IMG/VR virus record: IMGVR_UViG_2939152649_000005
Strand: one strand, 5' to 3'
Length of the DNA stretch: 13,265 nt
DNA from: a virus
Taxonomy: Duplodnaviria; Heunggongvirae; Uroviricota; Caudoviricetes
Part shown: positions 1 to 13,265 of the stretch, piece by piece
Position numbering within the stretch: position 1 is the stretch's first letter
Layout of the letters: every line of letters begins with the position of its first letter
Position numbers and translations under genes: made by a program
Notes under the pieces: model-generated
The model's database searches: none
What the model saw: the letters and a program-made list of their open reading frames with translations, nothing else
Told to the model about the DNA's origin: nothing

Positions 1-1236
<1,236 letters not shown>

Positions 1237-1240
<4 letters not shown>

Positions 1241-1563
1241 TTTTTCCAGAGGCGGTCGAACTCCGCCTTCGCAAAATAAGCGGAAGCCTGGCGAAGGATA
1301 TCGTTACTGCGGCGCAGTTCACGATTTTCACGTTCCAGCTCTTTCAGACGCTGACGTTCAGCGCTGGTGAGCCCACCATCACCGCCCCCGGTATCCCGCT
1401 CATGCTGGCGAACCCAGACACGCAGAGTCTCCGGCGTACAGCCAATCTTTGGGGCAATGGAACAAATTGCCGCCCACTGTGAGTCATATTCATCCTGACT
1501 TTCCAGAACCATACGGACTGCCCGTTGACGGACTTCGGGGGAAAAACGAGTATTTTTAGTCAT
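1237..1563 (-). CDS. IS3-family transposase OrfA (HTH/leucine-zipper N-terminal part)
   Basis: 108-aa [33 protein letters not shown]...RLWKK, recalled as the IS629-group OrfA. Ends in an A-run (TGGAAAAAATGATG) overlapping the orfB start, as expected for a -1 frameshift window. Confidence 0.9.
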
Positions 1564-1617
1564 CCTGTTTACCTCTTTCTCAGGAAGTTTAGTCTCCAGG
1601 ATTCCCGGGGCGGTTCA

Positions 1618-2615
1618 TACCCCATTACGCGCAAAGCCTTGTTCACCGTATTCTCACTCATCGGCTTACGTGGATCGTGATCGCCCACAAAAATCAGCTC
1701 TCAATTTCCGCTCATGCTTTTGATCTTTTCCAAAATACTTAGGGCCTGCCGCGACAAAGGTACAAGGTGTGGTGTCCGCATCTTCGAGCCACGCTGAGAA
1801 TGCTTGACTCCTTCCAGTTGCTCACGCTCACCTGGGATTGTCCACATAGCCGTTTCAAAATCTACTTCTGACCAGCGGGCAAAATGCAGCTCGCTCGAAC
1901 GGATGAAAACCAATAAAGTGAGTTCAACCGCCAGTCGAGTTAACGGTCTGCCAGAATAGTGATCTATGCGATGAAGTAATTCAGGTATACGGTTCAGTTC
2001 AAGAGCTGCACGGTGCTGTCTTTTCGCCGTAGCAACCGCACCTGCAATCTCTTGCGCGGGGTTGTAGTCGATTAAGCCGCTCTGAACGGCAAAGCGCATA
2101 ATCGCGGTAGTACGCTGCTGTAAACGGGCGGCAACTTCGAGCCGCCCGGATGACTCGACTGCTTTAATGGGTACAAGAAGATCCCGCGTCTTCAGTTCCG
2201 CAATGTTCCGCTTACCGATAGCAGTAAAGAGATTATCCTCCAGACTTTTCAAAACACGAGCGCTATGCGATGCCGACCACTTCTGATTGCTGGCGTGCCA
2301 GTCTCTGGCGACTACTTCAAACGTTATCGCCTCTTGTTCCTGTTCTACCTTAACAGCTTTCTTGTTTTCACTGGGATCGACACCATTAGCTAAAAGCTTA
2401 CGAGCCTCATCCCGGCGTGCCCTGGCATCCGCCAACGACACTTCGGGGTATTTCCCCAATGCCAGCATCTTCTCTTTACCGCCAAAGCGATAACGTAGCC
2501 GCCAGTATTTGGAGCCGTTAGGGTGAACCAGCAAAACCATGCCTTCACCGTCGGTCAGCTTATAGGCTTTTGCTTCAGGCTTAGCCGAACGAACCTTCAC
2601 ATCACTCAGAGCCAT
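1618..2615 (-). pseudogene. int: P4-type (DUF4102 + tyrosine recombinase) integrase, inactivated by an in-frame TGA at 1701-1703 and truncated at the IS junction
   Basis: The N-terminus MALSDVKVRSAKPEAKAYKLTDGEGMVLLVHPNGSKYWRLRYR... (ATG at 2613-2615, AAGGA upstream) is collinear with the intact paralog at 12003-13265. The ORF stops at ...KSMSGN*, but the same frame continues ELIFVGDHDPRKPMSENTVNKALRVMGY, aligning with SGKGEVIFPSDHDPKKVMSENTVNSALRVMGY of the paralog; the stop replaces a Gly codon. Homology ends at MGY, exactly at the IS terminus, so the C-terminal ~85 aa are missing. Confidence 0.85.
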
Positions 2616-2813
2616 GATGAGTATCCTTTCAAGGGTTCTGTGTGGGTACAAACATTATCGAACCGGGAAATACCCGCAGTTGTACCCGCATCAGTAAGTT
2701 GATGTAGATTGAATCAGGTTGACTTAGGTTGAGTGAAAAAGCGAGGAAAGCCTTGCGGATACTGGATTTTAGGCACAAAAAAAGACGTCCGTTGACGTCT
2801 ATTGATGTTCCGA

Positions 2814-2835
2814 TGGTGCGAAGGCCGGAATAGAA
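2814..2835 (-). other. Candidate att core: partial 3' end of a tRNA-Leu (leuX-like) gene, not a complete tRNA
   Basis: The plus strand reads TGGTGCGAAGGCCGGAATAGAA, whose reverse complement ...TTCCGGCCTTCGCACCA resembles the acceptor-stem/CCA end of E. coli leuX as I recall it (...GTCCGGCCTTCGGCACCA). The sequence 5' of it on the minus strand is AT-rich and cannot form the rest of a tRNA. It lies ~200 bp from the 5' end of the integrase pseudogene, the usual tRNA-int spacing. Confidence 0.4.
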
Positions 2836-2883
2836 AAACACAATAACTACATGTATTATATAATAAATAAAAATAAAATTTTC

Positions 2884-2907
2884 TTTTATGCCCCCTTTTA
2901 TGCCCCC
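2884..2907. repeat. Perfect tandem duplication of the 12-mer TTTTATGCCCCC
   Basis: TTTTATGCCCCC TTTTATGCCCCC read directly at 2884-2907, immediately after a ~40-nt stretch of almost pure A/T. Confidence 0.8.
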
Positions 2908-3139
2908 ACTGAAATTTCACCACCATAACTTTGCTTGATTAATAACCAAATTACATGAATATTTTGGTTTGGGTCCGAATAACGGATACAAACCAGAACA
3001 GGACCTACCACCAGAACCGCTATTAGTTGTATCGAATTTGACACAATGCCCGCCCGCAGTAATCAAGCCGTCAAGCAAATATCGTTGTGCTGTTCATGAC
3101 ACACCTGATCCCTCAAGAATTGCTCACAGCGAGAAAAAT

Positions 3140-4195
3140 ATGGATACCCCGGACATAATTTCCGTACCAGAGGTCACTGCTGCGACAGAACCGCAGTCCT
3201 CTGCAGAATGCTTCACCTTTGGCGATCCCATTCCCGTACTGGACCGGCGCGAACTGCTGGACTATGTGGAATGCGCGCAGATGGATCGCTGGTATGAGCC
3301 GCCGGTGAGTTTTGCAGGGCTGGCACGTACCTACCGAGCAGCCGTACATCACAGTTCACCAATTGCCGTTAAGCGTGACATTCTCAGCAGTACCTACATC
3401 CCACACCGCCTGCTCAGTCAGCAGTCTTTTGCCCGTTTCGTTCAGGATTATCTGGTGTTTGGTAATGCCTATCTGGAAAAGCGTACTAACCGGCTGGGCG
3501 GCGTCCTCACACTGGAGCCAGCGCTGGCGAAATACACCCGGCGCGGCGTTGACCTGGAATCCTACTGGTTTGTTAACTATGGCCTGACAACGCAGCCTTA
3601 TGAGTTCACCAGAGGCAATATTTTTCACCTGATGGAACCGGATATTAACCAGGAAATTTACGGGCTGCCCGGCTACCTCTCCGCCATTCCGTCAACCCTG
3701 CTCAACGAGTCCGCAACGCTGTTCCGCCGGAAGTATTACATCAACGGCAGCCATGCGGGCTTCATCATGTACATGACCGACGCGGCGCAGAATCAGGAGG
3801 ATGTGAACAACATCCGCAAGGCAATGAAAAGCGCCAAAGGGCCGGGCAATTTCCGCAATCTGTTTATGTACTCACCCAATGGCAAAAAGGACGGCATCCA
3901 GATCATCCCGCTGTCAGAGGTGGCGGCGAAAGATGAGTTTCTGAACATCAAGAACGTGAGCCGTGATGACATGATGGCAGCGCACCGCGTGCCGCCGCAG
4001 ATGATGGGTATCATCCCCAGCAACACCGGCGGCTTTGGCGATGTGGAAAAGGCCAGCCGTGTTTTTGTCCGCAACGAACTGATGCCGCTGCAGAAGCGAC
4101 TGCAGGAGCTGAATAACTGGCTGGGCGAAGAAGTGATCTGCTTCGAGCCTTATTCTTTACAACTTGATGAAAGTGCTGATAGCAACAGGGGGTAA
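3140..4195 (+). CDS. Possible P2 gpQ-type phage portal protein (351 aa from the first ATG); the family assignment is tentative
   Basis: Long ORF with ordinary codon usage. The track ORF begins at a TTG at 2969; the first ATG is at 3140 (MDTPDIISVPEV...). Its size matches the ~340-350 aa I recall for P2 Q, and it is transcribed toward a structured candidate cos region, as P2 Q is. I cannot confirm the family from memory. Confidence 0.5.
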   Translation: MDTPDIISVPEVTAATEPQSSAECFTFGDPIPVLDRRELLDYVECAQMDRWYEPPVSFAGLARTYRAAVHHSSPIAVKRDILSSTYIPHRLLSQQSFARFVQDYLVFGNAYLEKRTNRLGGVLTLEPALAKYTRRGVDLESYWFVNYGLTTQPYEFTRGNIFHLMEPDINQEIYGLPGYLSAIPSTLLNESATLFRRKYYINGSHAGFIMYMTDAAQNQEDVNNIRKAMKSAKGPGNFRNLFMYSPNGKKDGIQIIPLSEVAAKDEFLNIKNVSRDDMMAAHRVPPQMMGIIPSNTGGFGDVEKASRVFVRNELMPLQKRLQELNNWLGEEVICFEPYSLQLDESADSNRG

Positions 4196-4198
4196 TGT

Positions 4199-4561
4199 AT
4201 GGGATGGATCGGCGTTGATCTGGATGGCACGCTGGCGGTGTACCCGCCAGAGAGCGGGGCGCTAATAGGTGATGCCATTCCCGGCATGGCGGAAAGGGTC
4301 CGCAAATGGCACAAGGATGATATTGAAGTACGAATTTTTACCGTCCGGGCTGGTTCGCGTGCCGGAGTGAAGCAAGTTAAAGCCTGGTTGAAAGCCAATG
4401 AACTGCCGGACCTGATGGTGACGAACGTTAAAGACAGCGGCATGGTGGAATTATGGGATGACAGAGCGATACGTGTTATCCGTAATACCGGTTCAGTATG
4501 CGCCGGTTGCAACGGCACATCGCAGTTCCACCACCATTCAGGAGATTTCACCAACTGCTGA
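4199..4561 (+). CDS. Small HAD-superfamily-like protein (putative minimal phosphatase/nucleotidase) with a Cys/His-rich C-terminal tail
   Basis: ATG at 4199 is 3 nt after the upstream stop and is preceded by AGGGGG. The N-terminus MGWIGVDLDGTLA matches HAD motif I (hhhhDxDGT). Motif-II-like Thr in RIFTVRAG, downstream lysines, and motif-IV-like ELWDDRA occur with spacing compatible with a cap-less HAD fold. The tail is SVCAGCNGTSQFHHHSGDFTNC. Confidence 0.6.
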   Translation: MGWIGVDLDGTLAVYPPESGALIGDAIPGMAERVRKWHKDDIEVRIFTVRAGSRAGVKQVKAWLKANELPDLMVTNVKDSGMVELWDDRAIRVIRNTGSVCAGCNGTSQFHHHSGDFTNC

Positions 4562-4592
4562 GCCGGCAGGCATTCCGTTAACCATTACCTGA

Positions 4593-4633
4593 ACGCCTCA
4601 GCAGCATTCTGCGGGGCGTTAGCTTTATTTATG
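4593..4633 (+). terminator. Rho-independent terminator candidate downstream of the HAD-like gene
   Basis: AACGCCTCAGCAG-CATT-CTGCGGGGCGTT forms a ~12-bp stem (one bulge, one G-U pair) with a 4-nt loop, followed by AGCTTTATTTAT. Confidence 0.5.
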
Positions 4634-4863
4634 GCATGAACCATGCCACGGCACATGCGCCGCTCAGGTTGCCATTTCCCCCCTCTGCGCGCGCTGCCCC
4701 CCACGCCTGCCCGCTTCGCTTAACAGAATGGTTTTCATGCACCCCGTAAATCGCCTCAGGAGCCGCCACACAAGGGCTTTCACGTCAAAAATGATGCATG
4801 AGACTCATGCGTTTTCATGCGCCATAGACATGCACTCATGCGCTCTCAGGCCAGCCAGGAAAA

Positions 4864-4897
4864 AGGCGTAAAAAATCCCGGTGCCGGGCCGGGATTA
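4864..4897 (-). terminator. Rho-independent terminator for the minus-strand late operon (after the delta-like gene)
   Basis: Perfect 8-bp stem AATCCCGG/CCGGGATT with a 7-nt loop. On the minus-strand transcript the hairpin is followed directly by a U-run (UUUUUACGCCUUUU). It lies 20-50 nt beyond the stop of the 4917-5189 gene. Confidence 0.6.
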
Positions 4898-4916
4898 GGT
4901 AGGCGTTTTTTGCTAA

Positions 4917-5189
4917 TCAGACAGGGATTTGCTGGCGGCTTGATAACTTTGATGCAGAGCCATAGCGATTGAGCGTTTGCTGTTGTTTTTCCGGCATTTG
5001 TGCTTTGTCTGATTCCTGTTCATTGCGCCGGGGCTTCATAATTATCTTATCCACACTTTCCAGAGCGGTAAATGTGCAGGAACATTCAAGATTCTGGCAC
5101 TGATACCATGAGCGTTTAACCGACGGTGCTTCATAGGCGGTGGTTCTGGCGTGTGCAACGGTGCCGCATTCAGGACATTTCAGCGCCAT
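4917..5189 (-). CDS. Ogr/Delta-family zinc-finger late-gene transcriptional activator
   Basis: 90-aa protein MALKCPECGTVAHARTTAYEAPSVKRSWYQCQNLECSCTFTALESVDKII... has the CxxC...CxNxxC arrangement and the HART/YxCxN motifs I recall from P2 Ogr and P4 Delta. Its ATG overlaps the stop of the upstream gene (ATGA), indicating translational coupling. Confidence 0.85.
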   Translation of the reverse strand: MALKCPECGTVAHARTTAYEAPSVKRSWYQCQNLECSCTFTALESVDKIIMKPRRNEQESDKAQMPEKQQQTLNRYGSASKLSSRQQIPV

Positions 5190-5950
5190 CAGATACCCTC
5201 CATATCACGGTTACGTTTCTGCAGCTCTTCACGTTCCTGACGGATCTTCATTTTGTGAAGGGCCGCCGGTGACGGGATTTTGCTTAAATCGACACGAGCC
5301 GCATAATCCGGCGCAACGCCCGCCAGTTTAAACACAGGGTCCTGTTCCGGCATCGCAGTGTTAGCAAGAGCCGGTTTGGTGATATGTTTGTGAATAAAGT
5401 CTTTCAGCAGTGTGTCCGGGTCATTAACTGAATTCACCACCCCCACAACGGCACTGGCTTCCCGCCCCATTGTGGTTTTGAGCAGGCTCAGTGTCTGGAT
5501 TAACGCCTTACCATGCGCCTGCATGAAGTCTTCCCAGATTTGCTTTGCGCGAATTTCCACAAGGGTGTTATGTGCGCTGATATACTGCCCGGCTAATTTC
5601 CCGGCTTCCTGCGGTAATAAGGCATTTTCGCTTTCCTGAGCTGCCAGCAGTTCATCAAAATCCTCAAGCGTTTCTCGTCCCAGCGCAATTTCCGTGCGCA
5701 GTTTTTTCATTTCCTTTGAGACTACGCCCTGACTTTCACGAAACAGCGTGCGCCACTCCTCATTCAGCGCGTTCGTCGTGGCTTCCATTTCAGCCCGGCG
5801 CTGGCGGATTGTCGCAATATTATCCGCTGCCGCTTTCTGCCGACGACGTGCTTCAAGCCATGCGCTTCTGGCTGTGTTCAGGGTTTCCATTGCCTGCTGC
5901 GTTACAGCCGGAAAAGTGGAAAGGTTGTTATTCTCTGCGGTGTTGTTCAT
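5189..5950 (-). CDS. Psu/Sid-family protein (P4 polarity-suppression / capsid-size-determination-like), 253 aa
   Basis: ATG at 5950 preceded by AGGAG. Segments QQAMETLNTARSAWL and EDFMQAHGKAL resemble regions of P4 Psu as I recall it (QQAFDTCQNNKAAWL, NDFMQQHGTAL). The protein is ~60 aa longer than P4 Psu, closer in length to Sid, and sits directly upstream of the delta-like gene as sid does in P4. Confidence 0.65.
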   Translation of the reverse strand: MNNTAENNNLSTFPAVTQQAMETLNTARSAWLEARRRQKAAADNIATIRQRRAEMEATTNALNEEWRTLFRESQGVVSKEMKKLRTEIALGRETLEDFDELLAAQESENALLPQEAGKLAGQYISAHNTLVEIRAKQIWEDFMQAHGKALIQTLSLLKTTMGREASAVVGVVNSVNDPDTLLKDFIHKHITKPALANTAMPEQDPVFKLAGVAPDYAARVDLSKIPSPAALHKMKIRQEREELQKRNRDMEGI

Positions 5951-5984
5951 GACTTCTCCTGCCGGGTAGGTTCGTTACGTCAAT

Positions 5985-6040
5985 TGTGTCGTGACTGACA
6001 CAAGCGCACTATCGGCGCTCAGTGTGTGGTGGCTGGCACA
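5985..6040 (-). promoter_or_regulatory. Candidate Ogr/Delta-dependent late promoter region upstream of the Psu/Sid-like gene: two TGT-N12-ACA dyads
   Basis: TGT-N12-ACA at 5985-6002 (inside the palindrome TTGTGTC-gtgact-GACACAA) and at 6023-6040. The second is centred ~80 nt upstream of the ATG, compatible with the -55 position described for P2/P4 late promoters. The motif is short, so chance is not excluded. Confidence 0.35.
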
Positions 6041-6127
6041 ACGGGCGTTTGCGGTTATTCAGACGCGGCCATGACAGCCAGCCAGATAAAAATGCCTCTG
6101 TTTCAGCCTGCTTTATGTCCCGGATGC

Positions 6128-6326
6128 GGTGAAACAGGTGGAACAGGTGTTACAGCATTGTTTTGTAAAACATTTATATGCACATCACAGGTGAAACATC
6201 GCAGGTAACAAGGTGGAACAGCGGATCGGCTGGCGTTCCACCTGTTCCACCTCACTATTTCAGAAGGTGAAACAGGTTTAGCCCTTGTAAAATACGGTTG
6301 TTCCACCTGTTACACTTGTTACCCTT
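6128..6326. repeat. Iteron array (about 10 copies of GGTGRAACA / TGTTYCACC in both orientations); candidate replication origin or crr-type site bound by the alpha-type primase
   Basis: Read directly: GGTGAAACAGGTGGAACAGGTG (6129-6150), GGTGAAACATCGCAGGTAACAAGGTGGAACAG (6190-6221), GTTCCACCTGTTCCACC (6236-6251), GGTGAAACAGG (6266-6276), GTTGTTCCACCTGTTACACTTGTTACCC (6298-6325). The core is close to the TGTTCACC type-I iteron I recall for P4 ori/crr. The array lies between the 3' end of the primase gene and the late operon. Confidence 0.6.
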
Positions 6327-6350
6327 AATAAATAAGACTCACGCAAAGCC

Positions 6351-9023
6351 TTAACCTAGAACCTCGCTGTTGAAGACATAGAGCCTGCGGGGATTCATCT
6401 CTGGCGGGCGAATGTTTGTCTGCAGCTTGCCATCGGTGGAGGGCAGCAGATATCCACGATCCGCGCACAGACGTGCCACCTTGCGCGGGTCAAATCCCCG
6501 GCAGATTTCTTTCCAGCCGGACGGCATGACGTAGAACGTGGTGACAGCTTCCGTGCCCTGCGCGGTACTGCCTTTCTCCACCCTGCGCCAGCCCACCATA
6601 TTGCCGGGGCGGTTGCGCTCGTCGTGCCAGTCAGCAAAGCGGCTGTACTGATTCGCGGTAAAGAAACTGCGTACCTGCTCCAGTGCGGCAATATCTTCCT
6701 GATTGGCGGTGTGCCCGCGATCTTTCAGCCATGCGTTTAGGCAGACGCGGGTTGCCCGCAGCGCTTCACCCTCAGGCCAGCCGGTAATACCCAGCCGGGT
6801 TGCCAGCTCGCCCGCCATCGCCACCAGTGCAAAGCGGTTCACAGCCCGGCCTACCTGATTACCCGCATCTTTCGGGGTCAGGGCGGCGGTATATTCCTTC
6901 ATCAGTGACTTTGCCTGTGCCGTCAGCCCGTTAAGGTCAGCGGTCAGGGCTTTCAGCCACTCCCTGAACGGCGAACCGTAGTAGCTGGACGTGGCCCACT
7001 CCAGATGTTCCGCCAGAGCCTTGCCGCTGTCGAAGCCGTGCAGCTCCTCAAATACGCCAAATTTCCCGGAATCGCTGGGGATCTGGATCATCCTGACTTC
7101 CATCCCGGCAAAGGTACGCTCACCGGCTTTTGCCGCATGTTCGGTCAGTGACAGCTCGCCGGTTGAAAAGAACAGCAGCCGCCACTGCTTACGGGTGCGC
7201 AGCTCACCGTCCGTACCGGCACGGCCCTTGCCCTGACCGTTTGCCAGCATGTAGGCGATATTACCCGCCTCGCGTCCGTCCACCTCCCGGATCTCATCAA
7301 GCATCATGGCGGCATCGTTGCGGCGGCTGGCGCATCCCTCCAGCGCGTTGCCGGTTGCCCGCCACGTCTGCCAGTAATCAGGCCCGCCACAAACGGAGGT
7401 TGCCGCTTTCATGGTGGTGGTCTTACCGTCAGTCGATTCCCCCTTGAGGTGGTAGCCGCCGCCGTCCATCCCAACCAGCCGTAACAGGGGTGCAGCAAAG
7501 GCCAGACTGACGGCAAACGCCACGCGGGAGTTACCGGTGCAGTAACGGGAAACGTGCTCCCGCCATTCCTCCGTTGTACCTGACACACGGAAATCGCGCC
7601 CCTGCACGGAAGTGGTCTGGAGAATGACACCCTCTGCACCTTCACCGCTGACCTCATCCTGCAGGACGTAAACCTGACCATGCCAGCCAGTGCGGCTGAC
7701 GCAGGTCACGCGGCGTTCCGGTTTACACAGCGAGATATATTCCATCAGGCGGGCGCGGGCCTCACCGGTGGTGCTGATATAGGACAGCCCGTTAACCAGC
7801 AGTACCCGGCGCAGTTCCTCACCGCTACCACTGAGCATTTCCATCGGCATCGCCCAGCGGCGGCGCTCTCCCCATGTATCTTCCCACTCCAGCAGTCGCC
7901 CGAAATTACCGCCATCGGCATCGCAGGTGATTGCCGTCACGCGCAACGGGTTGCATATTTTGACGTTCTGGATCTCCGTCTCACCGTTGCGCTGTACCTG
8001 TTTTTCATACCAGAGATATTCCTGGGTAAGACGGAACCCGTGCGGCAACTGCGTGCGGCCTTCTCCGCACAGTACAAGACCGTTACGAAAGGCTTCACGG
8101 GCACGTGTAATACCGTGCTCACGGTGGAAGTCATTCCAGTCAGCTTTAATTTCTCCCGGTGGCAGCGTCACCCAGCCACCGACTGATTTTGCCGCCCGTT
8201 CAGCAAAGGATCTGCCGGGATTCTCGCCCCCGTCCTGAAAATCGTTATCACCGGCGATGATAATTTTTACCTCAGGCCAGCGTGCCCGCAGCGCCTGTGC
8301 GACGTTGGGCAGGTTGCCCGCCGATATGGCCGCCACTACGCATCCGGCGGTGAGCTGGCTTACCGTCAGCGCCGTGGCGTAACCTTCGGTAATCACCACC
8401 TGTACCGGCGGTTCAGACGGTAACGGGCTGAGCGCCACAAACGCGCCTTTCATCGTGCTGCCGGGCAGTATGCTTTTTTCACCCGTCGGGGCGATAAGCT
8501 GTGCACCGGTCACGGCTCCGGCGTTCGTCGTGAGCGGTAACAGCAGGGAACCGGCAGGGAAATCCTTACCACTGATATGCTGCACGCTCCCGGTCAGGGA
8601 GGCCGGGTATCCGGCGAACCCTTTTCCGGTCAGATAGGGGCTTTCTCCCGTGTGACTCTCTTTCATCAGGGCCGCCACGGTAAGGCTCATATCGCGTTTA
8701 GGGGCTTTTTGCCTGGCGGGCTTAACGGGCAGTTCCTGCACATCCGGCACATTAAGCACCTGCGCCACCTCCTGCGCTGCCTTTCTGACGCCGTAACCGG
8801 TTATGAGCTTAACCAGATCCAGACCATCACCATTGCCGCACTGGCTGCAAATCCACGTCCCGCGCCCGTCGAGGTCATCGAGGCGGAAGCGATCCTTGCC
8901 CCCACATTTCGGGCAGGGACCGTGCCTGCCGTTTTCAGGTACATCAATACGCAGCATCTGCAGAATGACGGGCCATTTTCCCCGCGCTGCGGCTGAAATC
9001 TGCGTAACCGTCTGTGTTGTCAT
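6351..9023 (-). CDS. P4 alpha-type bifunctional DNA primase-helicase (zinc ribbon + Toprim-like primase + P-loop NTPase)
   Basis: 890-aa ORF. N-terminal CPKCGGKDRFRLDD...WICSQCGNGDG is a CxxC...CxxC zinc ribbon. IIAGDNDFQDGGENPG is a Toprim-like acidic DxD motif. GYHLKGESTDGKTTT is a Walker A (GxxxxGKT). Its ATG overlaps the stop of the upstream small ORF. Confidence 0.9.
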   Translation of the reverse strand: MTTQTVTQISAAARGKWPVILQMLRIDVPENGRHGPCPKCGGKDRFRLDDLDGRGTWICSQCGNGDGLDLVKLITGYGVRKAAQEVAQVLNVPDVQELPVKPARQKAPKRDMSLTVAALMKESHTGESPYLTGKGFAGYPASLTGSVQHISGKDFPAGSLLLPLTTNAGAVTGAQLIAPTGEKSILPGSTMKGAFVALSPLPSEPPVQVVITEGYATALTVSQLTAGCVVAAISAGNLPNVAQALRARWPEVKIIIAGDNDFQDGGENPGRSFAERAAKSVGGWVTLPPGEIKADWNDFHREHGITRAREAFRNGLVLCGEGRTQLPHGFRLTQEYLWYEKQVQRNGETEIQNVKICNPLRVTAITCDADGGNFGRLLEWEDTWGERRRWAMPMEMLSGSGEELRRVLLVNGLSYISTTGEARARLMEYISLCKPERRVTCVSRTGWHGQVYVLQDEVSGEGAEGVILQTTSVQGRDFRVSGTTEEWREHVSRYCTGNSRVAFAVSLAFAAPLLRLVGMDGGGYHLKGESTDGKTTTMKAATSVCGGPDYWQTWRATGNALEGCASRRNDAAMMLDEIREVDGREAGNIAYMLANGQGKGRAGTDGELRTRKQWRLLFFSTGELSLTEHAAKAGERTFAGMEVRMIQIPSDSGKFGVFEELHGFDSGKALAEHLEWATSSYYGSPFREWLKALTADLNGLTAQAKSLMKEYTAALTPKDAGNQVGRAVNRFALVAMAGELATRLGITGWPEGEALRATRVCLNAWLKDRGHTANQEDIAALEQVRSFFTANQYSRFADWHDERNRPGNMVGWRRVEKGSTAQGTEAVTTFYVMPSGWKEICRGFDPRKVARLCADRGYLLPSTDGKLQTNIRPPEMNPRRLYVFNSEVLG

Positions 9024-9403
9024 ACTTCCCCCTGATACAGCGAAACACCCGAGCTGCAGAAGTCATCAAATGCCGCCGGAAGTGTGCGGTACAGCTCCGC
9101 CATCACTTCACAGCCGCGCACAGTCAGTACCGGTGGCGCGGTCAGCAATGATGGCTCCAGCATGTCAGTCAGCAGCGCCAGTGCAGCCGCTGCTCCCTGT
9201 GCTTCGCCATATTCGTTAATCAGTGCGCACTCGATATGCAGGGCAATGGCCATTTCAATACGTTCAACCGTCAGGCTGTGCGGACCATAGTGATCGCAGC
9301 CGGTTTCGGTCAGCGCTTTCTGGCGCCAGGCCGATGCAATAGCCCGCCGGTAAAGCGCAGTGGTCATTTCTGCCGGAAAAATAGAAACCTGCGGCTGGTT
9401 CAT
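9020..9403 (-). CDS. Hypothetical protein (127 aa), last of four small coupled ORFs upstream of the primase gene
   Basis: Start overlaps the stop of the 9400-9684 ORF; stop overlaps the primase start. Same strand and operon as the primase. No motif recognised. Confidence 0.55.
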   Translation of the reverse strand: MNQPQVSIFPAEMTTALYRRAIASAWRQKALTETGCDHYGPHSLTVERIEMAIALHIECALINEYGEAQGAAAALALLTDMLEPSLLTAPPVLTVRGCEVMAELYRTLPAAFDDFCSSGVSLYQGEV

Positions 9404-9684
9404 TGGGTGCCTCCTTCAATCAGTTCGCAACTGTGCGCAATATCCGTCAAATCTGCCCGCAGGTACTCCATCAGCGCGGCGATGCCTGGCGCACATCCTG
9501 CATCCAGCGTTCCGCCCTGCGAGGGGTATTCAGAAAAGAGAAGCTGCAACATGTCGCAGGCCTTTCTGGCGCGGGCCAGCTTTCCGAAACCGTCCTCTGA
9601 CAACCCATACGCAAAAGCACCGCTATTGTGTTTTTCAGGCAAAGCGTGGCCCTGAGCACCGTTGTGCCCGTTTGAAATATTCAT
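9400..9684 (-). CDS. Hypothetical protein (94 aa) in the replication operon
   Basis: ATG at 9684 preceded by GGAG at about 9 nt; stop overlaps the start of the next ORF. No motif recognised. Confidence 0.55.
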   Translation of the reverse strand: MNISNGHNGAQGHALPEKHNSGAFAYGLSEDGFGKLARARKACDMLQLLFSEYPSQGGTLDAGCAPGIAALMEYLRADLTDIAHSCELIEGGTQ

Positions 9685-9715
9685 CGTGGATTACTCCGTT
9701 TTCAGCGGTGTTTTG

Positions 9716-10075
9716 TCAGAGAAACTTTGAATAGTGACTGTCGTCAGGTTCAGCAGAACGCCGTATGCTGCGCTCCCGCCAGCGGGTAAATACCACCGAC
9801 GGATGCAGCGTCAGCGAGCCAGAGCCGCTACCCCCCGCGGGAGCTGGCGAAGGTTTAAAGAGCGGCGCATCAAACAGGCGCGTATACCGCTGTTCAAACC
9901 ATGCCAGAGGGCAGGAAGAAAGCTGGTTGTCGCTGTCATGACGTATCAACACTTCACAGCTGAATTCAGGATTAACCAGCGCCACGGAGGGAGACGCTTC
10001 AATTAGTCGGATGATTGTTACGGTCCAGCCACGTTCATGCTGCCAGCGTTCGCCGGGTTGCGGATAATTACGCAT
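9716..10075 (-). CDS. Hypothetical protein (119 aa from the ATG at 10075) in the replication operon
   Basis: The track ORF is extended to 10105 by an alternative start. The ATG at 10075 is preceded by GGAGG (GGAGGTGAACATG) and overlaps the stop of the upstream 58-aa ORF (ATGCGTAA). Confidence 0.55.
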   Translation of the reverse strand: MRNYPQPGERWQHERGWTVTIIRLIEASPSVALVNPEFSCEVLIRHDSDNQLSSCPLAWFEQRYTRLFDAPLFKPSPAPAGGSGSGSLTLHPSVVFTRWRERSIRRSAEPDDSHYSKFL

Positions 10076-10244
10076 GTTCACCTCCACAGGGAATGCGACC
10101 GGCAAAGCTCAGCACATAGTCCGGGGCCAGTCTGCGCCGCGCTGAGCGCTCGTTATCTGCGGTGATCCTTAACATCACAGGACGGGCATTGCGTTGACTG
10201 CGGTTGATCGCCGCAAATAACCAGGTAAACTTCTGTTTAGCCAT
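10068..10244 (-). CDS. Small basic hypothetical protein (58 aa), first gene of the replication operon
   Basis: ATG at 10244 with GAGGA 8-9 nt upstream. The 244-aa track ORF 10068-10802 shares this frame, but its upstream part crosses an intergenic region, a terminator, and genes on both strands, so only the last 58 codons are credible. Confidence 0.45.
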   Translation of the reverse strand: MAKQKFTWLFAAINRSQRNARPVMLRITADNERSARRRLAPDYVLSFAGRIPCGGEHA

Positions 10245-10320
10245 CTTCGTTTCCTCATACAGCGGATTGGTCAGAAGCCCGGTTAGTGTTGCTGCACTGT
10301 CGGGCTTCGCATTCACAAGG

Positions 10321-10410
10321 TGAATCGCACCTTTGCTTTTAAAGCTACCCTTAAGTGAATCGCACTTCAAGTCTTTTATTATCATTTTTTTTGCGTATAC
10401 TGAATCGCAC
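10321..10410. promoter_or_regulatory. Three direct repeats of TGAATCGCAC in the divergent promoter region between the RHH gene and the replication operon; candidate operator sites
   Basis: Copies at 10321-10330, 10366-10375 and 10401-10410. The third directly follows a TATACT (-10-like) hexamer located ~30 nt upstream of the RHH gene's ATG. Confidence 0.5.
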
Positions 10411-10431
10411 CTAACGCAAGGAGATCCAGTA

Positions 10432-10617
10432 ATGGCAACGGGTTCAACTAACAACAAGTCGCAGCAACTTAATGCTCGTTTCCCACATGATGTAGTTGCA
10501 GAATTAGAAAGCAACCTTGAAGATGGAGAAACGAAAGCGCAATTTATTGTTACCGCTGTAAAAGGCGAGATTAAACGCCGACAGCGCAGGAAAAATAAGC
10601 CAGAGCAAGTAAACTGA
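10432..10617 (+). CDS. Small ribbon-helix-helix (Arc/MetJ-like) DNA-binding protein; candidate repressor
   Basis: 61 aa from the ATG at 10432, with a strong AAGGAG 8 nt upstream. NARFPHDVVAELE resembles the RHH N-terminal beta-strand/helix of Arc (NLRWPREVLDLV). It is divergent from the replication operon and followed by a terminator. Confidence 0.6.
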   Translation: MATGSTNNKSQQLNARFPHDVVAELESNLEDGETKAQFIVTAVKGEIKRRQRRKNKPEQVN

Positions 10618-10680
10618 ATAGAGAAGCGAACAGACGTTCTCTCAGGTTCCATGTCAATTTCAGTAAGCGACAATATTTTT

Positions 10681-10714
10681 AAGCCCACAAACTCAATTTG
10701 TCGGGCTTTTTTAT
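10681..10714 (+). terminator. Rho-independent terminator for the RHH gene, at the convergence with alpA
   Basis: AAGCCCACAA-actcaat-TTGTCGGGCTT hairpin (one bulge) followed by TTTTTTATT on the plus strand. Confidence 0.55.
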
Positions 10715-10944
10715 TAGTGATTTTCATGCCGTTCACCACGAGAGGCATATATTTGCTCTTGAATCCAGTGATCGACTTCGCTTTCAACAAATGAAATTGC
10801 ACGAGTTCCTATTTTCACCGGGCGGGGAAATGTATTGTTTGAAAGCTGTTTGTAAAGCCATGCCTTGCTACGCTGAACGCGTCTTAGCACCTCTTTTGCT
10901 GAGATAAGAGTCTGATTATCTGAAAGGTTGTTTGCATATTCCAT
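10714..10944 (-). CDS. alpA: AlpA-family phage regulatory protein (MerR-like HTH; excisionase/Vis-like)
   Basis: 76 aa from the ATG at 10944, with GGAG 7 nt upstream; the track ORF is extended by a GTG start. ...ISAKEVLRRVQRSKAWLYKQLSNNTFPRPVKIGTRAISFVESEVDHWIQEQI matches the AlpA signature I recall (L..EV....GLSRST.Y.....G.FP.P.K.G.R...W...E...W). Confidence 0.8.
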   Translation of the reverse strand: MEYANNLSDNQTLISAKEVLRRVQRSKAWLYKQLSNNTFPRPVKIGTRAISFVESEVDHWIQEQIYASRGERHENH

Positions 10945-11250
10945 CTTGTTACTCCGTGTTCTACTTAAGTTCACGGTGACTTTAAACAGTGTAAGAACAT
11001 GATTCTAGTGATAATGGAATCTATCGAAACCGATATAGTTTCTATTGAAAGATTTTTATTTCTATTAAAAATGAAATGCAAACTTGATCGGCATCTAGTT
11101 AAAAATAAAACACAATAATATCATAAAGTTAAATTATAACTTCGAGTTCAAAACATGGATTAAAGTCACTCAATGGGTATTCATTGCACTATAACACATC
11201 ATATTTCCCCATATCTCCCCAGTATTACGCAGTTTTAGCCAGTTTATTAC

Positions 11251-11290
11251 TATAGCCCCTTATAGCCCCTTATAGCCACTTATAGTCCTG
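11251..11290. repeat. 10-bp tandem repeat TATAGCCCCT x4 (two perfect, two degenerate copies)
   Basis: TATAGCCCCT TATAGCCCCT TATAGCCACT TATAGTCCTG read directly, 45-80 nt downstream of the 212-aa gene stop in an AT-rich spacer. Confidence 0.8.
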
Positions 11291-11333
11291 AATCAGGGTA
11301 AGAAATGAAAGACTTTTATCTACTAATAGAAAA

Positions 11334-11972
11334 TCATTTCCCATACTTAATAATATCATTCCCAATTTTTACTTTTTTATAAAACGTGGCTTTCTTAACC
11401 CCTTCCAGTGAAATTTGATGCTCATTACAAAAAGAGATAATATCATTATATATCACACTATTATCACCATAACTTGCCTTACCATATTTTTTGAGCAACT
11501 CAATTAATAATGAAATTAATTTACAATTATTATTATCTTCATCCTCTTTTCTGTATTGCCCTCTGCCATTACTCCTTAACTTTTTACCAACTTCATATAA
11601 TTCACTTCCTCCTAACATCATTAAAATATCGCCCCAATCTTTATTTTTTACTTGTTGTAGCAATGCGTTATCAATTCTTTCCTTAATTTCAGGAGGTACA
11701 ATATCTTCCCTCTGAAAGATATAAGCGGCAGTTAATACTAAATTCGCTTCCACTTTTTGCGTGGCGGATATGTTTTTATATTCATTAATTAATTGTAGAT
11801 TTCTGGTTATTGCCTTTCTTAACCTAATAACCTCTTTTAATTGAATATCAGTTAATTCATCATTTTCTGTATCATAGTCAAAACCATTCATAGCAAGCGC
11901 TACTTCGTGCGGCGTAATGTATGTTAACCTATTAAAATAAAACAAATTATTATCAGATTGAGTGTTATTCAT
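11334..11972 (-). CDS. Hypothetical protein, 212 aa, strongly AT-rich orphan cargo gene directly downstream of the integrase
   Basis: ATG at 11972 with GGAG 8 nt upstream, 30 nt after the integrase stop on the same strand. Asn/Lys/Ile-rich composition and AT-rich codons contrast with the GC-rich replication module. No motif recognised. Confidence 0.7.
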   Translation of the reverse strand: MNNTQSDNNLFYFNRLTYITPHEVALAMNGFDYDTENDELTDIQLKEVIRLRKAITRNLQLINEYKNISATQKVEANLVLTAAYIFQREDIVPPEIKERIDNALLQQVKNKDWGDILMMLGGSELYEVGKKLRSNGRGQYRKEDEDNNNCKLISLLIELLKKYGKASYGDNSVIYNDIISFCNEHQISLEGVKKATFYKKVKIGNDIIKYGK

Positions 11973-12002
11973 TTGAATTTCTCCTCAGAGCCACAATGGT
12001 AA

Positions 12003-13265
12003 TTATTTTCCATGCACACGCGCAAAATCATATGGTGTGATAGATCCATTCTTGTTAGCATCAATGTAATCAGCCCACCATTGCAGCATTAATTTTCTTT
12101 CTTCAAGATATTCAGATGTATGCATGTATGAACCTTTCACGTTTTTTCGTTCAACGTGACTTAGCTGTCTTTCAATGGCATCATCATTCCATAGTTTCGA
12201 CTCACTTAGCGCACCACGCGCCATAGTTCTAAAACCATGCCCACATACTTCTGTCTTCGTATCATATCCCATTACACGTAAGGCACTATTTACAGTATTT
12301 TCACTCATTACTTTTTTAGGATCATGATCGCTGGGAAATATAACCTCGCCTTTACCGCTCAAGGCATGTAAACGTTTAAAAATATCAAATGCTTGTTTGC
12401 TAAGCGGAACAATATGTTCAGTTTTCATCTTCATCCCACGCTCAGAGTGTTTTACGCCGGGAATAGGTTTACGAATTCCGGGTATCGTCCACTCGCTTCG
12501 TTCAAAGTTAACCTCACTCCATCGAGCAAAACGCATCTCACTTGAACGAATAAATGTGAGTAGCGTTAATTCAACGGCAAGCCGTGTCATTAGTCGCCCT
12601 TTATAGCGTGATAGTCTTTCAAGAAACTCAGGGATTCTTTTTGGGGGTAGTGCTGGGTGATGGGTTGCCTTAACGCTTAAAAGCGCTCCAGCCATATCAC
12701 TGGCAGGATTTGATTCAAGAAGGTCATTCTGCACACCGAAACGCATAATTGCGGTTACGCGCTGCATCAGTCGCTGCGCAACATCATGTTTACCTGCCGC
12801 ATCAACAGCTTTGATCGGATTGAGAAGCTGGCTGGTTCTCAACGTTCTGGCGTCAATTTGACCTATCGAGGGGAAAATATACTGCTCAAGCGTCAGCAGA
12901 ACGCGACGGCTATGATCTTCGCTCCAAGTTAGGTTACTTGCGTGCCATTGCCTTGCGATAGTTTCAAATAAATATGCCCCCTCAATTTCAGCTTGTGCCC
13001 CCTTTTGCTCAGCTTTGGGGTCAATGCCCTGAGACAACAATTTCTTTGCTGCATCGCGCTTACCCCTAGCCTCAGCCAAAGTGATCGTCGGGTATACACC
13101 AAAAGCGAGCCGATCTTCCTTTTTGTCAGATGGGCGGCGATATTTCATGCGCCAATACTTGGAACCTTTTGGGGAGACTTCAAGATACAAGCCGCCTCCA
13201 TCAGCCATTTTATAGGCTTTCTCTTTCGGCTTTGCGGTCTCTATCTGGCGAGCATTGAGTTTCAT
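12003..13265 (-). CDS. int: P4-type tyrosine integrase (DUF4102 N-terminal domain + catalytic domain), apparently intact, 420 aa
   Basis: The ORF runs from an ATG formed by the last 3 nt of the window to a stop at 12003. The N-terminus MKLNARQIETAKPKEKAYKMADGGGLYLEVSPKGSKYWRMKYR is collinear with the pseudogene at 1618-2615. It retains the C-terminal part the pseudogene lacks, including HGFRTMARGAL (box II H-x-x-R) and downstream Tyr residues. Confidence 0.9.
   Translation of the reverse strand: MKLNARQIETAKPKEKAYKMADGGGLYLEVSPKGSKYWRMKYRRPSDKKEDRLAFGVYPTITLAEARGKRDAAKKLLSQGIDPKAEQKGAQAEIEGAYLFETIARQWHASNLTWSEDHSRRVLLTLEQYIFPSIGQIDARTLRTSQLLNPIKAVDAAGKHDVAQRLMQRVTAIMRFGVQNDLLESNPASDMAGALLSVKATHHPALPPKRIPEFLERLSRYKGRLMTRLAVELTLLTFIRSSEMRFARWSEVNFERSEWTIPGIRKPIPGVKHSERGMKMKTEHIVPLSKQAFDIFKRLHALSGKGEVIFPSDHDPKKVMSENTVNSALRVMGYDTKTEVCGHGFRTMARGALSESKLWNDDAIERQLSHVERKNVKGSYMHTSEYLEERKLMLQWWADYIDANKNGSITPYDFARVHGK

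Follow-up and report, generated by a model that had tools for sequence, protein, structure and literature searches.

How did two integrase genes of one family, pointing in the same direction, come to lie in a single integration hotspot? The question is raised by a 13,265-nt stretch of DNA (IMG/VR virus record IMGVR_UViG_2939152649_000005, called the window below) that covers the integration hotspot at leuX in a chromosome of the Escherichia type. leuX is where P4 classically attaches, and it is well known as a hotspot for genomic islands. A preliminary description, made from the letters of the window alone, proposed that two P4-like elements lie here in tandem, one intact and one decayed. Our analysis leads to a modified picture. 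We consider it very probable that the hotspot holds an older island (island 2), headed by the integrase gene int2, and in tandem with it a P4-like satellite of about 10.6 kb (element 1), which arrived later. The boundaries of the satellite, the order of the two insertions, the recent mobility of the newcomer and the homologies of its genes are matters of observation.

Both integrases belong to the P4 family and both are encoded on the minus strand, as the preliminary description had it; at the protein level they are 56% identical to each other. int1 (12003-13265) is intact. Its product of 420 aa contains the Pfam domains Arm-DNA-bind_3, Phage_int_M and Phage_integrase and, over 410 residues, shows 72.4% identity to P4 Int. 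int2 (1618-2615), recognized by its Pfam domains and its identity to P4 Int (52%), is dead. It has the same N-terminal set of domains as int1, but only the start of the catalytic domain is present: there is an internal stop codon at 1701-1703, and about the last 100 residues of the catalytic domain are gone. Homology to P4 int runs to 1618, the start of the right inverted repeat of an insertion sequence (IS) of the IS3 family. RefSeq treats the identical copy of int2 in another strain, wlxctx60, as a pseudogene and notes its internal stop and missing C-terminus.

The two units meet at an att core (2814-2829, minus strand), which is at once the attR of element 1 and the attL of island 2. Read from 2829 to 2814 it is TCCGGCCTTCGCACCA, that is, the last 17 nt of leuX (TCCGGCCTTCGGCACCA) minus one G, and it lies 199 bp upstream of the start of int2. 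A search of the window for the 17-nt core with up to 3 mismatches gave no match, because its single copy differs from leuX by a deletion of 1 nt and not by substitutions. This is the tRNA-Leu-like 3' end that had been noticed about 200 bp before int2 and taken for the repeat separating two tandem elements. It is indeed that: the P arm of element 1 adjoins it on one side and the P' arm of island 2 on the other, and the match to the end of leuX is not due to chance.

The P arm of element 1 (2830-3010, minus strand) carries tandem arm-type Int sites GGGGGCATAAAA at 2884-2895 and 2896-2907. Over the 100 nt that adjoin the core, identity to P4 attP (positions 4077-4176 of P4, in its P arm) is 72.5%, and in sister elements the arm is kept to about position 3010. 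According to the P4 annotation, 12-bp arm repeats occur as two tandem copies in the P arm and two in the P' arm, with further copies inverted at the int start codon (one) and inside int (one), all of the form GGGGGCA(T/C). In element 1 there are arm-type sites inside int1 (12970-12981 and 12991-13002), and complete copies of the element have two tandem repeats and one inverted repeat just before the int1 ATG. Thus the number, spacing and orientation of the sites are as annotated in P4. The P' arm of island 2 (2616-2813, minus strand) has an analogous layout of its own. It has a terminator-like site, a hairpin followed by a T-run at 2783-2800, just past the tRNA-end repeat, and putative arm-type repeats of its own, GCGGGTA at 2671-2677 and 2683-2689 with an inverted near-copy TACCCAC at about 2642-2648. 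In wlxctx60 this spacer stands directly 3' of an intact leuX.

What lies at the other end of element 1? ARAGORN finds no tRNA gene inside the window, which is expected, since the tRNA sits past its right edge. To judge from loci with an identical integrase, one would find attL, within leuX, and what remains of the P' arm about 165-181 bp beyond that edge. An exact look-up of the Int1 protein returned at least 300 blocks of the assembly collection, and of the eight loci with an identical int1 that were read, six have a tRNA-Leu(CAA) gene whose end lies 164 bp upstream of the start codon of int1. One of the genomes with the element is that of E. coli ET734 (99% identity), where the tRNA-Leu(CAA), again 164 bp beyond the int1 ATG, is leuX itself: its neighbours are ahr, yjgR and lptFG, as around leuX of K-12. 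The other flank of the element in ET734 is an intact intB of the K-12 type. In near-identical copies of the element the core is repeated at both ends. The two expectations set out in the preliminary description, a tRNA gene just outside the right edge and a counterpart of 2814-2829 at the far end of the element (the 3' end of leuX), are therefore borne out in these copies.

The strongest evidence comes from genomes in which the site is empty. E. coli wlxctx60 matches the window from 1 to 2835 and PCP06021 from 1 to 2829, both at 99.8-99.9%. The matching block covers an istB fragment, the IS and the truncated int2, and in both strains an intact leuX adjoins it directly. Homology to genomes without element 1 thus ends exactly within the core (2829-2835). 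In a three-way alignment, attB consists of leuX and the int2 spacer, attL of leuX and the P' arm of the element, and attR of the P arm of the element, the core and the int2 spacer. The span between the core repeats is 10,667 bp. Element 1 is a discrete insertion of about 10.67 kb that extends from 2830 to about 13446. Since the strains with an empty site have leuX set against an int2 that is already truncated by the IS, element 1 entered a leuX that was occupied by island 2, and it arrived after the IS had broken int2.

One might instead suppose that the window shows a single composite leuX island whose integrase gene was duplicated internally, with 2814-2829 being a chance match or a relic. 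Such a reading could draw on the common family and orientation of the two integrases and on the presence of only one copy of the core inside the window. However, strains that have island 2 only do exist, and it is precisely in the core that the window ceases to match them. Element 1, for its part, is found next to quite different right-hand flanks (K-12-type intB, HsdR and others) and also at an ectopic site, and the two integrases differ in their arm-type repeats and share only 56% identity. The genomes with an empty site and those with alternative flanks already refute the composite island, and we give it practically no chance. They also speak against a constant joint inheritance of element 1 and island 2.

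The ectopic site deserves a description. In CP084290.1 there are two copies of the element, 100.000% identical over 10,689 bp (L011, 9820-20510, and L012). One of them is at leuX. The other has no tRNA gene adjacent to it and interrupts hcp, the gene for the type VI secretion tube protein, at a site that has TCCGGCCTTCGCA in common with the core. When the flanks are joined via the core, an intact Hcp of 159 aa (PF05638, 4e-27) results only if the site had a single G. No unoccupied hcp site was found in the E. coli genomes and metagenome contigs searched; it was reconstructed from the hcp reading frame instead. The genome with the two copies is probably that of a Salmonella, its leuX flank being only about 80% identical to K-12, which is in line with the source names.

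Other comparisons give the same impression of recent movement. Copies in other assemblies match the window element at 99.96% over 8.3 kb, the probable Salmonella copies match it at 99.5% overall, and the chromosomes in which these copies (99.5-99.96%) reside have only some 80% identity to K-12 in the flanks. Element 1 is active now, or was very recently. Beyond such copies, the same architecture with a primase that is 97-100% identical is seen in genomes representing species of Citrobacter, Enterobacter, Shigella, Pseudocitrobacter and Pantoea (L019-L025), where unrelated P4-family integrases stand beside tRNA-Thr(CGT) or tRNA-Arg(CCT). Seven other species, whose integrases and tRNA targets differ, have the order int...primase-sid-(psu)-delta as well. 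These relatives point to very recent spread between genera with swapping of the integrase module. What we see is a coherent, currently spreading sub-family with exchangeable integration modules and not a one-off rearrangement.

In a further locus, L016 (9700-9836), the element comes after another prophage, whose integrase is different and which has displaced the 5' portion of leuX; the repeat that is left comprises about 30 nt of the tRNA 3' end. This second, unrelated element uses a longer leuX core, so that an array of three elements is possible.

If element 1 is a satellite, what is island 2? At its left end the window contains nested IS debris. An istB fragment of the IS21 family (51-305, minus strand; Pfam IstB_IS21, 7.8e-24), labelled in RefSeq as a partial ATP-binding protein in wlxctx60, is debris of island 2 and lies outside the satellite. 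Between it, itself truncated, and the truncated int2 is nested the IS3-family element (308-1617, minus strand), with orfA (1237-1563) and orfB (350-1240), HTH_Tnp_1 and rve domains, 25-nt inverted repeats at 308-332 and 1593-1617, and a -1 frameshift signal, for which Rfam gives an ALIL frameshift pseudoknot (121.5 bits, 1166-1282). It is this element that removes the 3' end of int2. The debris as a whole (51-1617) is common to at least two satellite-free E. coli strains at 99.8-99.9% and recurs on plasmids.

Past int2, island 2 of an empty-site strain continues with genes for a TetR, a DUF2254 protein and a BCCT transporter, IS3, lpxM/virK and IS debris, and further on with a yeeU/cbtA toxin-antitoxin module, an HNH nuclease and nanM/nanC, until the fim genes are reached. 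None of sid, psu, delta, alpha primase or cos was found in island 2 of that strain. Nor did 50 kb of island 2 contain a further copy of the core at up to 3 mismatches, so that no distal end is detectable. The island has parallels in the leuX-intB region of K-12 (cryptic prophage PR-Y / KpLE2) and in pathogenicity island (PAI) II of strain 536, which occupy the same position. As in the intB region of K-12, a P4-family integrase gene follows leuX immediately, the spacer has the same design and is collinear (terminator, then arm repeats), and decay is IS-mediated. Unlike the K-12 case, int2 is a different allele, its spacer is clearly diverged, and the cargo varies by strain. Island 2 is a mosaic leuX genomic island of the KpLE2 or PAI type that uses a P4-family integrase.

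Could both units nevertheless be P4-like satellites, the hijacking genes of island 2 having decayed or been replaced? int2 is of the P4 family and comes with its own P' arm and tRNA-end repeat, and tandem P4-like elements as well as pseudogenised remains have been reported (PMC8628076). Against this stand the contents of island 2 (IS, TetR, BCCT, lpxM/virK, yeeU/cbtA and nanM/nanC, with no sid, psu, delta, alpha or cos), the missing distal core, and the fact that the K-12 counterpart intB heads a non-satellite element. Moreover, many non-satellite islands at leuX use P4-family integrases (PMC3202238). We regard the idea as unlikely, and a decayed P4-like satellite is not supported as a description of island 2. 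Of the original proposal, then, the central inference stands, and the architecture was read correctly: there is an intact satellite in tandem with a dead int2, but island 2 resembles a satellite only by its integrase.

The satellite nature of element 1 itself is seen in its genes, whose order on one strand is int, orf212, alpA, ..., primase, sid, delta, cos, cargo and attR. In the window as a whole, all genes of note are on the minus strand except for two short plus-strand stretches. Particularly telling is a protein of 253 aa (5189-5950, minus strand), which structure-chain, blastp and PHROG matches identify as an orthologue of Sid, the external scaffold that determines capsid size. It matches the Sid chain of the P4 procapsid, 7jw1_E, over its full length (9.3e-11, residues 12-246 against 5-240), P4 Sid in blastp (8e-13, residues 12-247 against 5-241) and the Sid-length phrog_6165 (7.8e-95). 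Its matches to the Psu family are partial and weak, and they are the sole Psu-family matches in the window: no separate Psu protein is found among its open reading frames (ORFs). A sister element in E. coli AJ6 has a Sid-like gene and, between sid and delta, a separate true Psu (Pfam, 1e-44). Since AJ6 has both, it is psu and not sid that is missing from the window. The preliminary description had called this protein psu/sid-like and found no separate sid. The family assignment was correct, but the second point has to be turned around, as Sid is present and Psu absent.

Upstream of sid is a late promoter of the Psid type (5985-6040, minus strand) with two TGT-N12-ACA dyads at 5985-6002 and 6023-6040. 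From the dyad centres to the ATG it is 43.5 and 81.5 nt, the very distances found at P4 sid and also in the Pantoea copy. They correspond to the Delta-binding sites at about -18 and -55 of Psid. Four of the six TGT-N12-ACA dyads in the window fall within 110 nt upstream of sid or of the portal gene described below, where about three would be expected over the whole 13 kb. The gene that follows sid (4917-5189, minus strand) encodes a single-domain Ogr/Delta late-gene activator of 90 aa (PF04606 Ogr_Delta, 1.1e-16) that is 43% identical to the first domain of P4 Delta.

The replication genes are a mixture. The primase-helicase of 890 aa (6351-9023, minus strand) has a Zn-ribbon and Toprim part like that of P4 alpha, with 37% identity restricted to residues 6-316, fused to a DUF927 helicase; the helicase module of P4 is D5_N/DUF5906/Pox_D5. 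Among deposited phage or satellite records we found no close relative of this primase/DUF927 helicase. Just downstream of it, at 6120-6320, is a cluster of iterons in both orientations, with five GTTCCACC octamers and GTTTCACC variants. In P4, the replication region crr lies directly downstream of alpha and its type 1 repeat is TGTTCACC, so the iterons of element 1 occupy the same position.

The remaining genes belong to the early and regulatory part. A homologue of P4 ORF106 (9020-9403, minus strand; Pfam DUF5375, 43% identity) precedes three early-operon ORFs of 94, 119 and 58 aa (9400-10244, minus strand), compared with P4, PHROGs and the RefSeq annotation of ET734; the 119-aa ORF is weakly similar to P4 ORF151, and the 58-aa ORF, Icd-like, is similar to part of the P4 'cI' ORF. 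The sole plus-strand gene of the regulatory region encodes a small YlcI/YnfO-family protein (10432-10617; ET734 annotation, phrog_949). An AlpA/Vis-type regulator, a putative excisionase, is encoded at 10714-10944 (minus strand; Pfam Phage_AlpA PF05930, 1.9e-11; excisionase PHROGs). Between int1 and alpA there is a stretch of 30% GC (11000-12000). It includes an AT-rich ORF of 212 aa (11334-11972, minus strand, about 30% GC), noted by its composition, which matches phrog_30524 only and gave no match in Pfam, PADLOC or NCBIfam. This ORF accompanies int1 and not the other integrases of the sub-family, and the stretch may be a second accessory slot or code for an integrase-linked factor.

Some P4 functions were looked for in vain. 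No ORF of the window matches PF25738, which P4 epsilon does match, and blastp against P4 epsilon was blank. With Rfam at E<=1 the window yielded neither a C4/CI RNA nor any other RNA of satellites; the frameshift pseudoknot of the IS and an RT-15 match below threshold were all that appeared. The preliminary description had credited the region with a full set of P4-like functions, which overstates the case, as no epsilon, Psu or CI/C4 RNA is found and the helicase half comes from a different family. The individual functions it listed (AlpA, primase, iterons, a Sid/Psu-family protein and an Ogr/Delta protein) are present; it passed over the portal gene, the HAD-like gene and the cos-like block, which together fall within 2969-4916. 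It was also right that the late genes follow the primase on the same strand, in an order unlike that of canonical P4.

Downstream of delta is a block of about 230 bp (4684-4916, minus strand) that is conserved among sister elements and contains a cos-like core, GGCGTGGGGGGCAGCGCGC, at about 4690-4708. It ends in AAGCGGGCAGGCGTG(G/C)GGGGC(A/T)GCGCGCGC, after which divergence is complete. In alignments the block pairs with the cos region annotated in Cartapus, a P2-like phage, as well as with the joined cos ends of P4; against those P2-like phages whose portals are closest, identity to the cos side is 68.6% over about 165 nt. Within 4562-4916 there are several repeats of the type GCATGA(G/A) upstream of the cos-like core, for example GCGCATGAGTGCATG, GCGCATGAAAACGCATGAG and GGTGCATGAAAACCA, which may be terminase-binding sites.

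Is element 1 then necessarily of the P4 type? Phage-inducible chromosomal islands (PICIs) typically have int - alpA - primase/replicase in this order on a single strand, as element 1 does, the DUF927 helicase is not of the P4 type, and epsilon and Psu are absent. Element 1 might thus be a Gram-negative PICI, or some other non-P4 satellite, with a lambdoid or other helper. Yet it has a full-length Sid orthologue, an Ogr/Delta activator and exactly the Psid geometry of P4, its cos-like block is related to the cos of P2-like phages, its portal is P2-type, and its integrase and attP are P4-like. The small-terminase or Rpp-type packaging-redirection proteins of Gram-negative PICIs were not detected among the window proteins with Pfam and PHROG. 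We therefore think this alternative very unlikely and continue with a P4-like satellite.

Between the cos-like core and attR there is a slot whose cargo differs among sister elements. In AJ6 and about 20 other E. coli strains the slot is filled by retron St85, in MDK6L1 by a DUF4062 gene and a portal gene, in L013 by a DprA-like gene and a hydrolase gene, and in the window by a HAD-like gene for 120 aa and a portal gene. A cos-proximal hotspot of P4-like satellites has been described (PMC9122126). The slot resembles it in its varied cargo between cos and att and in the break of conservation right after the cos core; it differs in that the portal-bearing elements reproduce the P2 order cos, cargo, portal inside a satellite, with the portal on the opposite strand as in P2-like phages. 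The integrase found just beyond the slot, in the window (1618-5189) as well as in AJ6 (L007, 1878-6291), is the int2 of the neighbouring island and not that of the satellite. Pipelines that cut from psu to the next integrase would capture the hotspot but with the wrong integrase and orientation.

The portal cassette (3028-4561, plus strand) is the most unusual part of element 1. Its first gene (3140-4195) encodes a P2-type, gpQ-like portal protein of 351 aa (Pfam Phage_portal), which scores 346 bits with TIGR01540 against a cut-off of 166 and so passes the equivalog cut-off of NCBIfam portal_PBSX. Identity to the portals of Peduoviridae is 86-93% at the protein level and up to 88.9% at the DNA level. 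The second gene (4199-4561) starts 3 nt after the portal stop codon and encodes the 120-aa protein, cargo that is similar to HAD/PNK phosphatases (PHROG 1238 and 415) and, like the 212-aa ORF, has no match in Pfam, PADLOC or NCBIfam. Upstream of the portal gene, at 3028-3045 and 3086-3103, are two TGT-N12-ACA dyads (3028-3103, plus strand) that may form a late promoter activated by Ogr/Delta. They are 45.5 and 103.5 nt upstream of the ATG and are invariant in the MDK6L1 and Pantoea copies. In AJ6, the sister without a portal, the dyads are absent and the P arm diverges at about 3010.

Is the cassette perhaps a degraded remnant of a P2-like prophage, caught between the satellite and island 2? 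The close identity to Peduoviridae portals (86-93%) would fit, and so would the arrangement in P2-like phages, in which the portal gene is the one nearest to cos with cargo in between. The cassette, however, lies inside the unit bounded by att sites: the core and the Int sites of the P arm (2814-2907) are to the left of the portal. The element has also taken it along to the ectopic site and into other species. Phage homology does not reach beyond 3195-4158, inside the portal gene, and there is no terminase or capsid fragment on either side. The ectopic copy L011, in which the cassette stands between the same att ends, contradicts a separate P2 remnant, and we see hardly any chance for it. Nor do the neighbours of the portal, which are the att P arm and the HAD-like gene, include a gpQ-to-gpL head operon of the Peduoviridae kind, and no capsid, protease, terminase or head-tail connector genes, such as accompany the portal in capsid-forming PICIs (cf-PICIs), were found in the window.

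The portal gene thus belongs to element 1. Satellite copies of it have an acidic N-terminus, MDTPDIISVPEV..., replacing the basic N-terminus of the phage proteins. Comparison of the window gene with the satellite-borne copy in MDK6L1 gives dN/dS = 0.087 at dS 0.34, which shows strong purifying selection on the portal between two satellites. It is carried along by the element in Escherichia, probable Salmonella, Pseudocitrobacter and Pantoea, and a 351-aa portal of the same 90% cluster is recorded from Citrobacter. The exact portal protein occurs on 108 contigs, with source names mainly of Salmonella, and the exact 120-aa protein on 338. In complete E. coli genomes the cassette is rare (4 of 5,426 cover at least 80% of it). 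A PDB sequence search with the portal gave no match.

What might a satellite need a portal for? To our knowledge, P4-type satellites encode no virion structural component. Portal genes in P4-like satellites are not mentioned in the P4-like satellite survey papers that were searched, and published surveys put gene exchange between P2 and P4 at almost nil. One possibility is that this sub-lineage carries its own P2 gpQ-like portal as a working part, a suggestion that we make only tentatively and consider rather less probable than its opposite. If so, the stolen particles would have a portal vertex supplied or substituted by the satellite itself. A different possibility is that the portal gene is kept as a homology arm that mirrors the cos-cargo-portal hotspot of P2 and serves to pass cargo between helper and satellite.

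We return now to the G that is missing from attR. The one-G form, TTCGCACCA, occurs in the window, ET734, L012, L015, L016 and MDK6L1, and the two-G form, TTCGGCACCA, in L009, L010 and L014. All attL copies seen have GG. Copies of attR with one G adjoin four different right-hand flanks, and both forms adjoin the same int2-type flank. In MDK6L1 (L008, about 3190-3215) an 8-nt unit, TTCGCACC, is triplicated at the attR spot.

The two obvious placements of the exchange conflict. The ectopic site had one G and yet its attL has GG, so that the GG came from attP and exchange took place 5' of it. A single G beside four unrelated flanks is, on the other hand, hard to explain unless the element carried it, which would place exchange 3' of the G. 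An exchange solely 3' of the polymorphic G is contradicted by the ectopic attL; an exchange solely 5' of it needs the same 1-nt deletion independently beside four flanks. The simplest way out, to which we give even chances, is that the polymorphic base is inside the strand-exchange (overlap) region, so that heteroduplex products segregate either allele, and passage through a secondary site could create an attP with a single G. If the base is in the overlap, the heterology between attL and attR in the window copy may reduce excision.

Putting these pieces together, the following history is very probable. An older mosaic island would have integrated in the 3' end of leuX by means of int2. int2 would afterwards have gained a stop codon and been truncated by the IS3-family element, leaving island 2 fixed in place. 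Later still, Int1 would have recombined the attP of the satellite with the copy of leuX that was still intact, and the satellite would have landed between the tRNA gene and island 2. For its further life we borrow from the biology of P4, as for the kind of helper. The satellite most likely stays dormant until a P2-like helper is present. Excision would then be carried out by Int1 and AlpA, replication would start from the iterons, and the late genes of satellite and helper would be cross-activated through Delta/Ogr. Sid would make small capsids from the helper capsid protein, and the helper terminase would package DNA from the satellite cos.

Several points weigh against this account and should be stated. 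The window stops at the int1 start codon, and its attL and leuX are deduced from near-identical elements in other genomes. The attR core is one G short of attL, and excision is maybe impaired if that base lies in the strand-exchange region. An excised element would have the junction ...GTGTTTTTCTATTCCGGCCTTCG(G)CACCATTAACACTTC..., and an exact-pattern search of viral and metagenome contigs returned none, a result that is uninformative. The 19-nt cohesive-end sequence of P2/P4, GGCGAGGCGGGGAAAGCAC, is absent at up to 3 mismatches, for which reason we call the site cos-like; its assignment depends on aligning a diverged block. Finally, as no epsilon, Psu or CI/C4 RNA was found, derepression by the helper and immunity must differ from those of P4 or be absent.

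How does element 1 compare with known satellites? With P4 (NC_001609) it shares the leuX target, a core that is the 3' end of leuX, GGGGGCA(T/C) arm sites in the same number and layout, homologues of Int, Sid, Delta, ORF106 and the primase domain of alpha, an identical Psid geometry, iterons downstream of the primase and a cos-like site beside a variable cargo slot; P4 is 11.6 kb long and element 1 about 10.7 kb. The differences are also considerable. In P4 the sid-delta-psu operon diverges from alpA-to-alpha and int-attP is between cII and crr, whereas in element 1 the int-attP module is upstream of alpA, and sid and delta come after the primase on the same strand. Unlike P4, element 1 is without Psu, epsilon and a C4/CI RNA match, has one domain in Delta instead of two, a DUF927 helicase and a diverged cos core, and carries a P2-type portal.

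The P4-like satellite family, as delimited by SatelliteFinder and by Moura de Sousa & Rocha, has been defined by seven markers (PMC10085698). Element 1 has five of them: the integrase, Sid, Delta, AlpA and the alpha-type primase. Its likeness to the family extends to Enterobacterales hosts, a size of about 10 kb, a variable hotspot adjacent to cos and exchangeable integrases (PMC8628076, PMC10085698). Lacking the Psu and Ash/epsilon markers, it is a 'Type C' element. Its gene order departs from the psu-delta-sid / alpA-epsilon-alpha order that is 'very conserved' in the family, and it probably falls within the approximately 1% of rare order variants (PMC8628076). Element 1 is a variant of the P4-like family and not a new kind of system.

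What does all this mean? The tandem arrangement as such is routine. P4-like satellites flanked by two integrases are already in the surveys, and such two-integrase or tandem cases have been noted as a problem of delimitation (PMC8628076, PMC10085698). The locus provides a worked example, with boundaries at nucleotide level and an empty site, in which the integrase past the cargo slot proves to be that of the neighbouring island. More generally, it draws attention to an under-described branch of the P4 family, in which all core genes share one strand, the helicase is DUF927 and Delta has a single domain. Members of this sub-family, now spreading through at least six genera with swapped integrases, have primases that are 97-100% identical, and the window copy is in addition without Psu and epsilon. 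The Type C class was left out of a 2026 hotspot study, and it is by the lack of these two markers that copies like that of the window were filtered out.

The most interesting leftovers are the polymorphism of the att core and the portal cassette with its putative late promoter. The cassette is a clear recent transfer of a gene from P2 to P4, and it bears on the puzzle of why exchange between the two is nearly absent. It may also be that it encodes a structural protein of the satellite's own.

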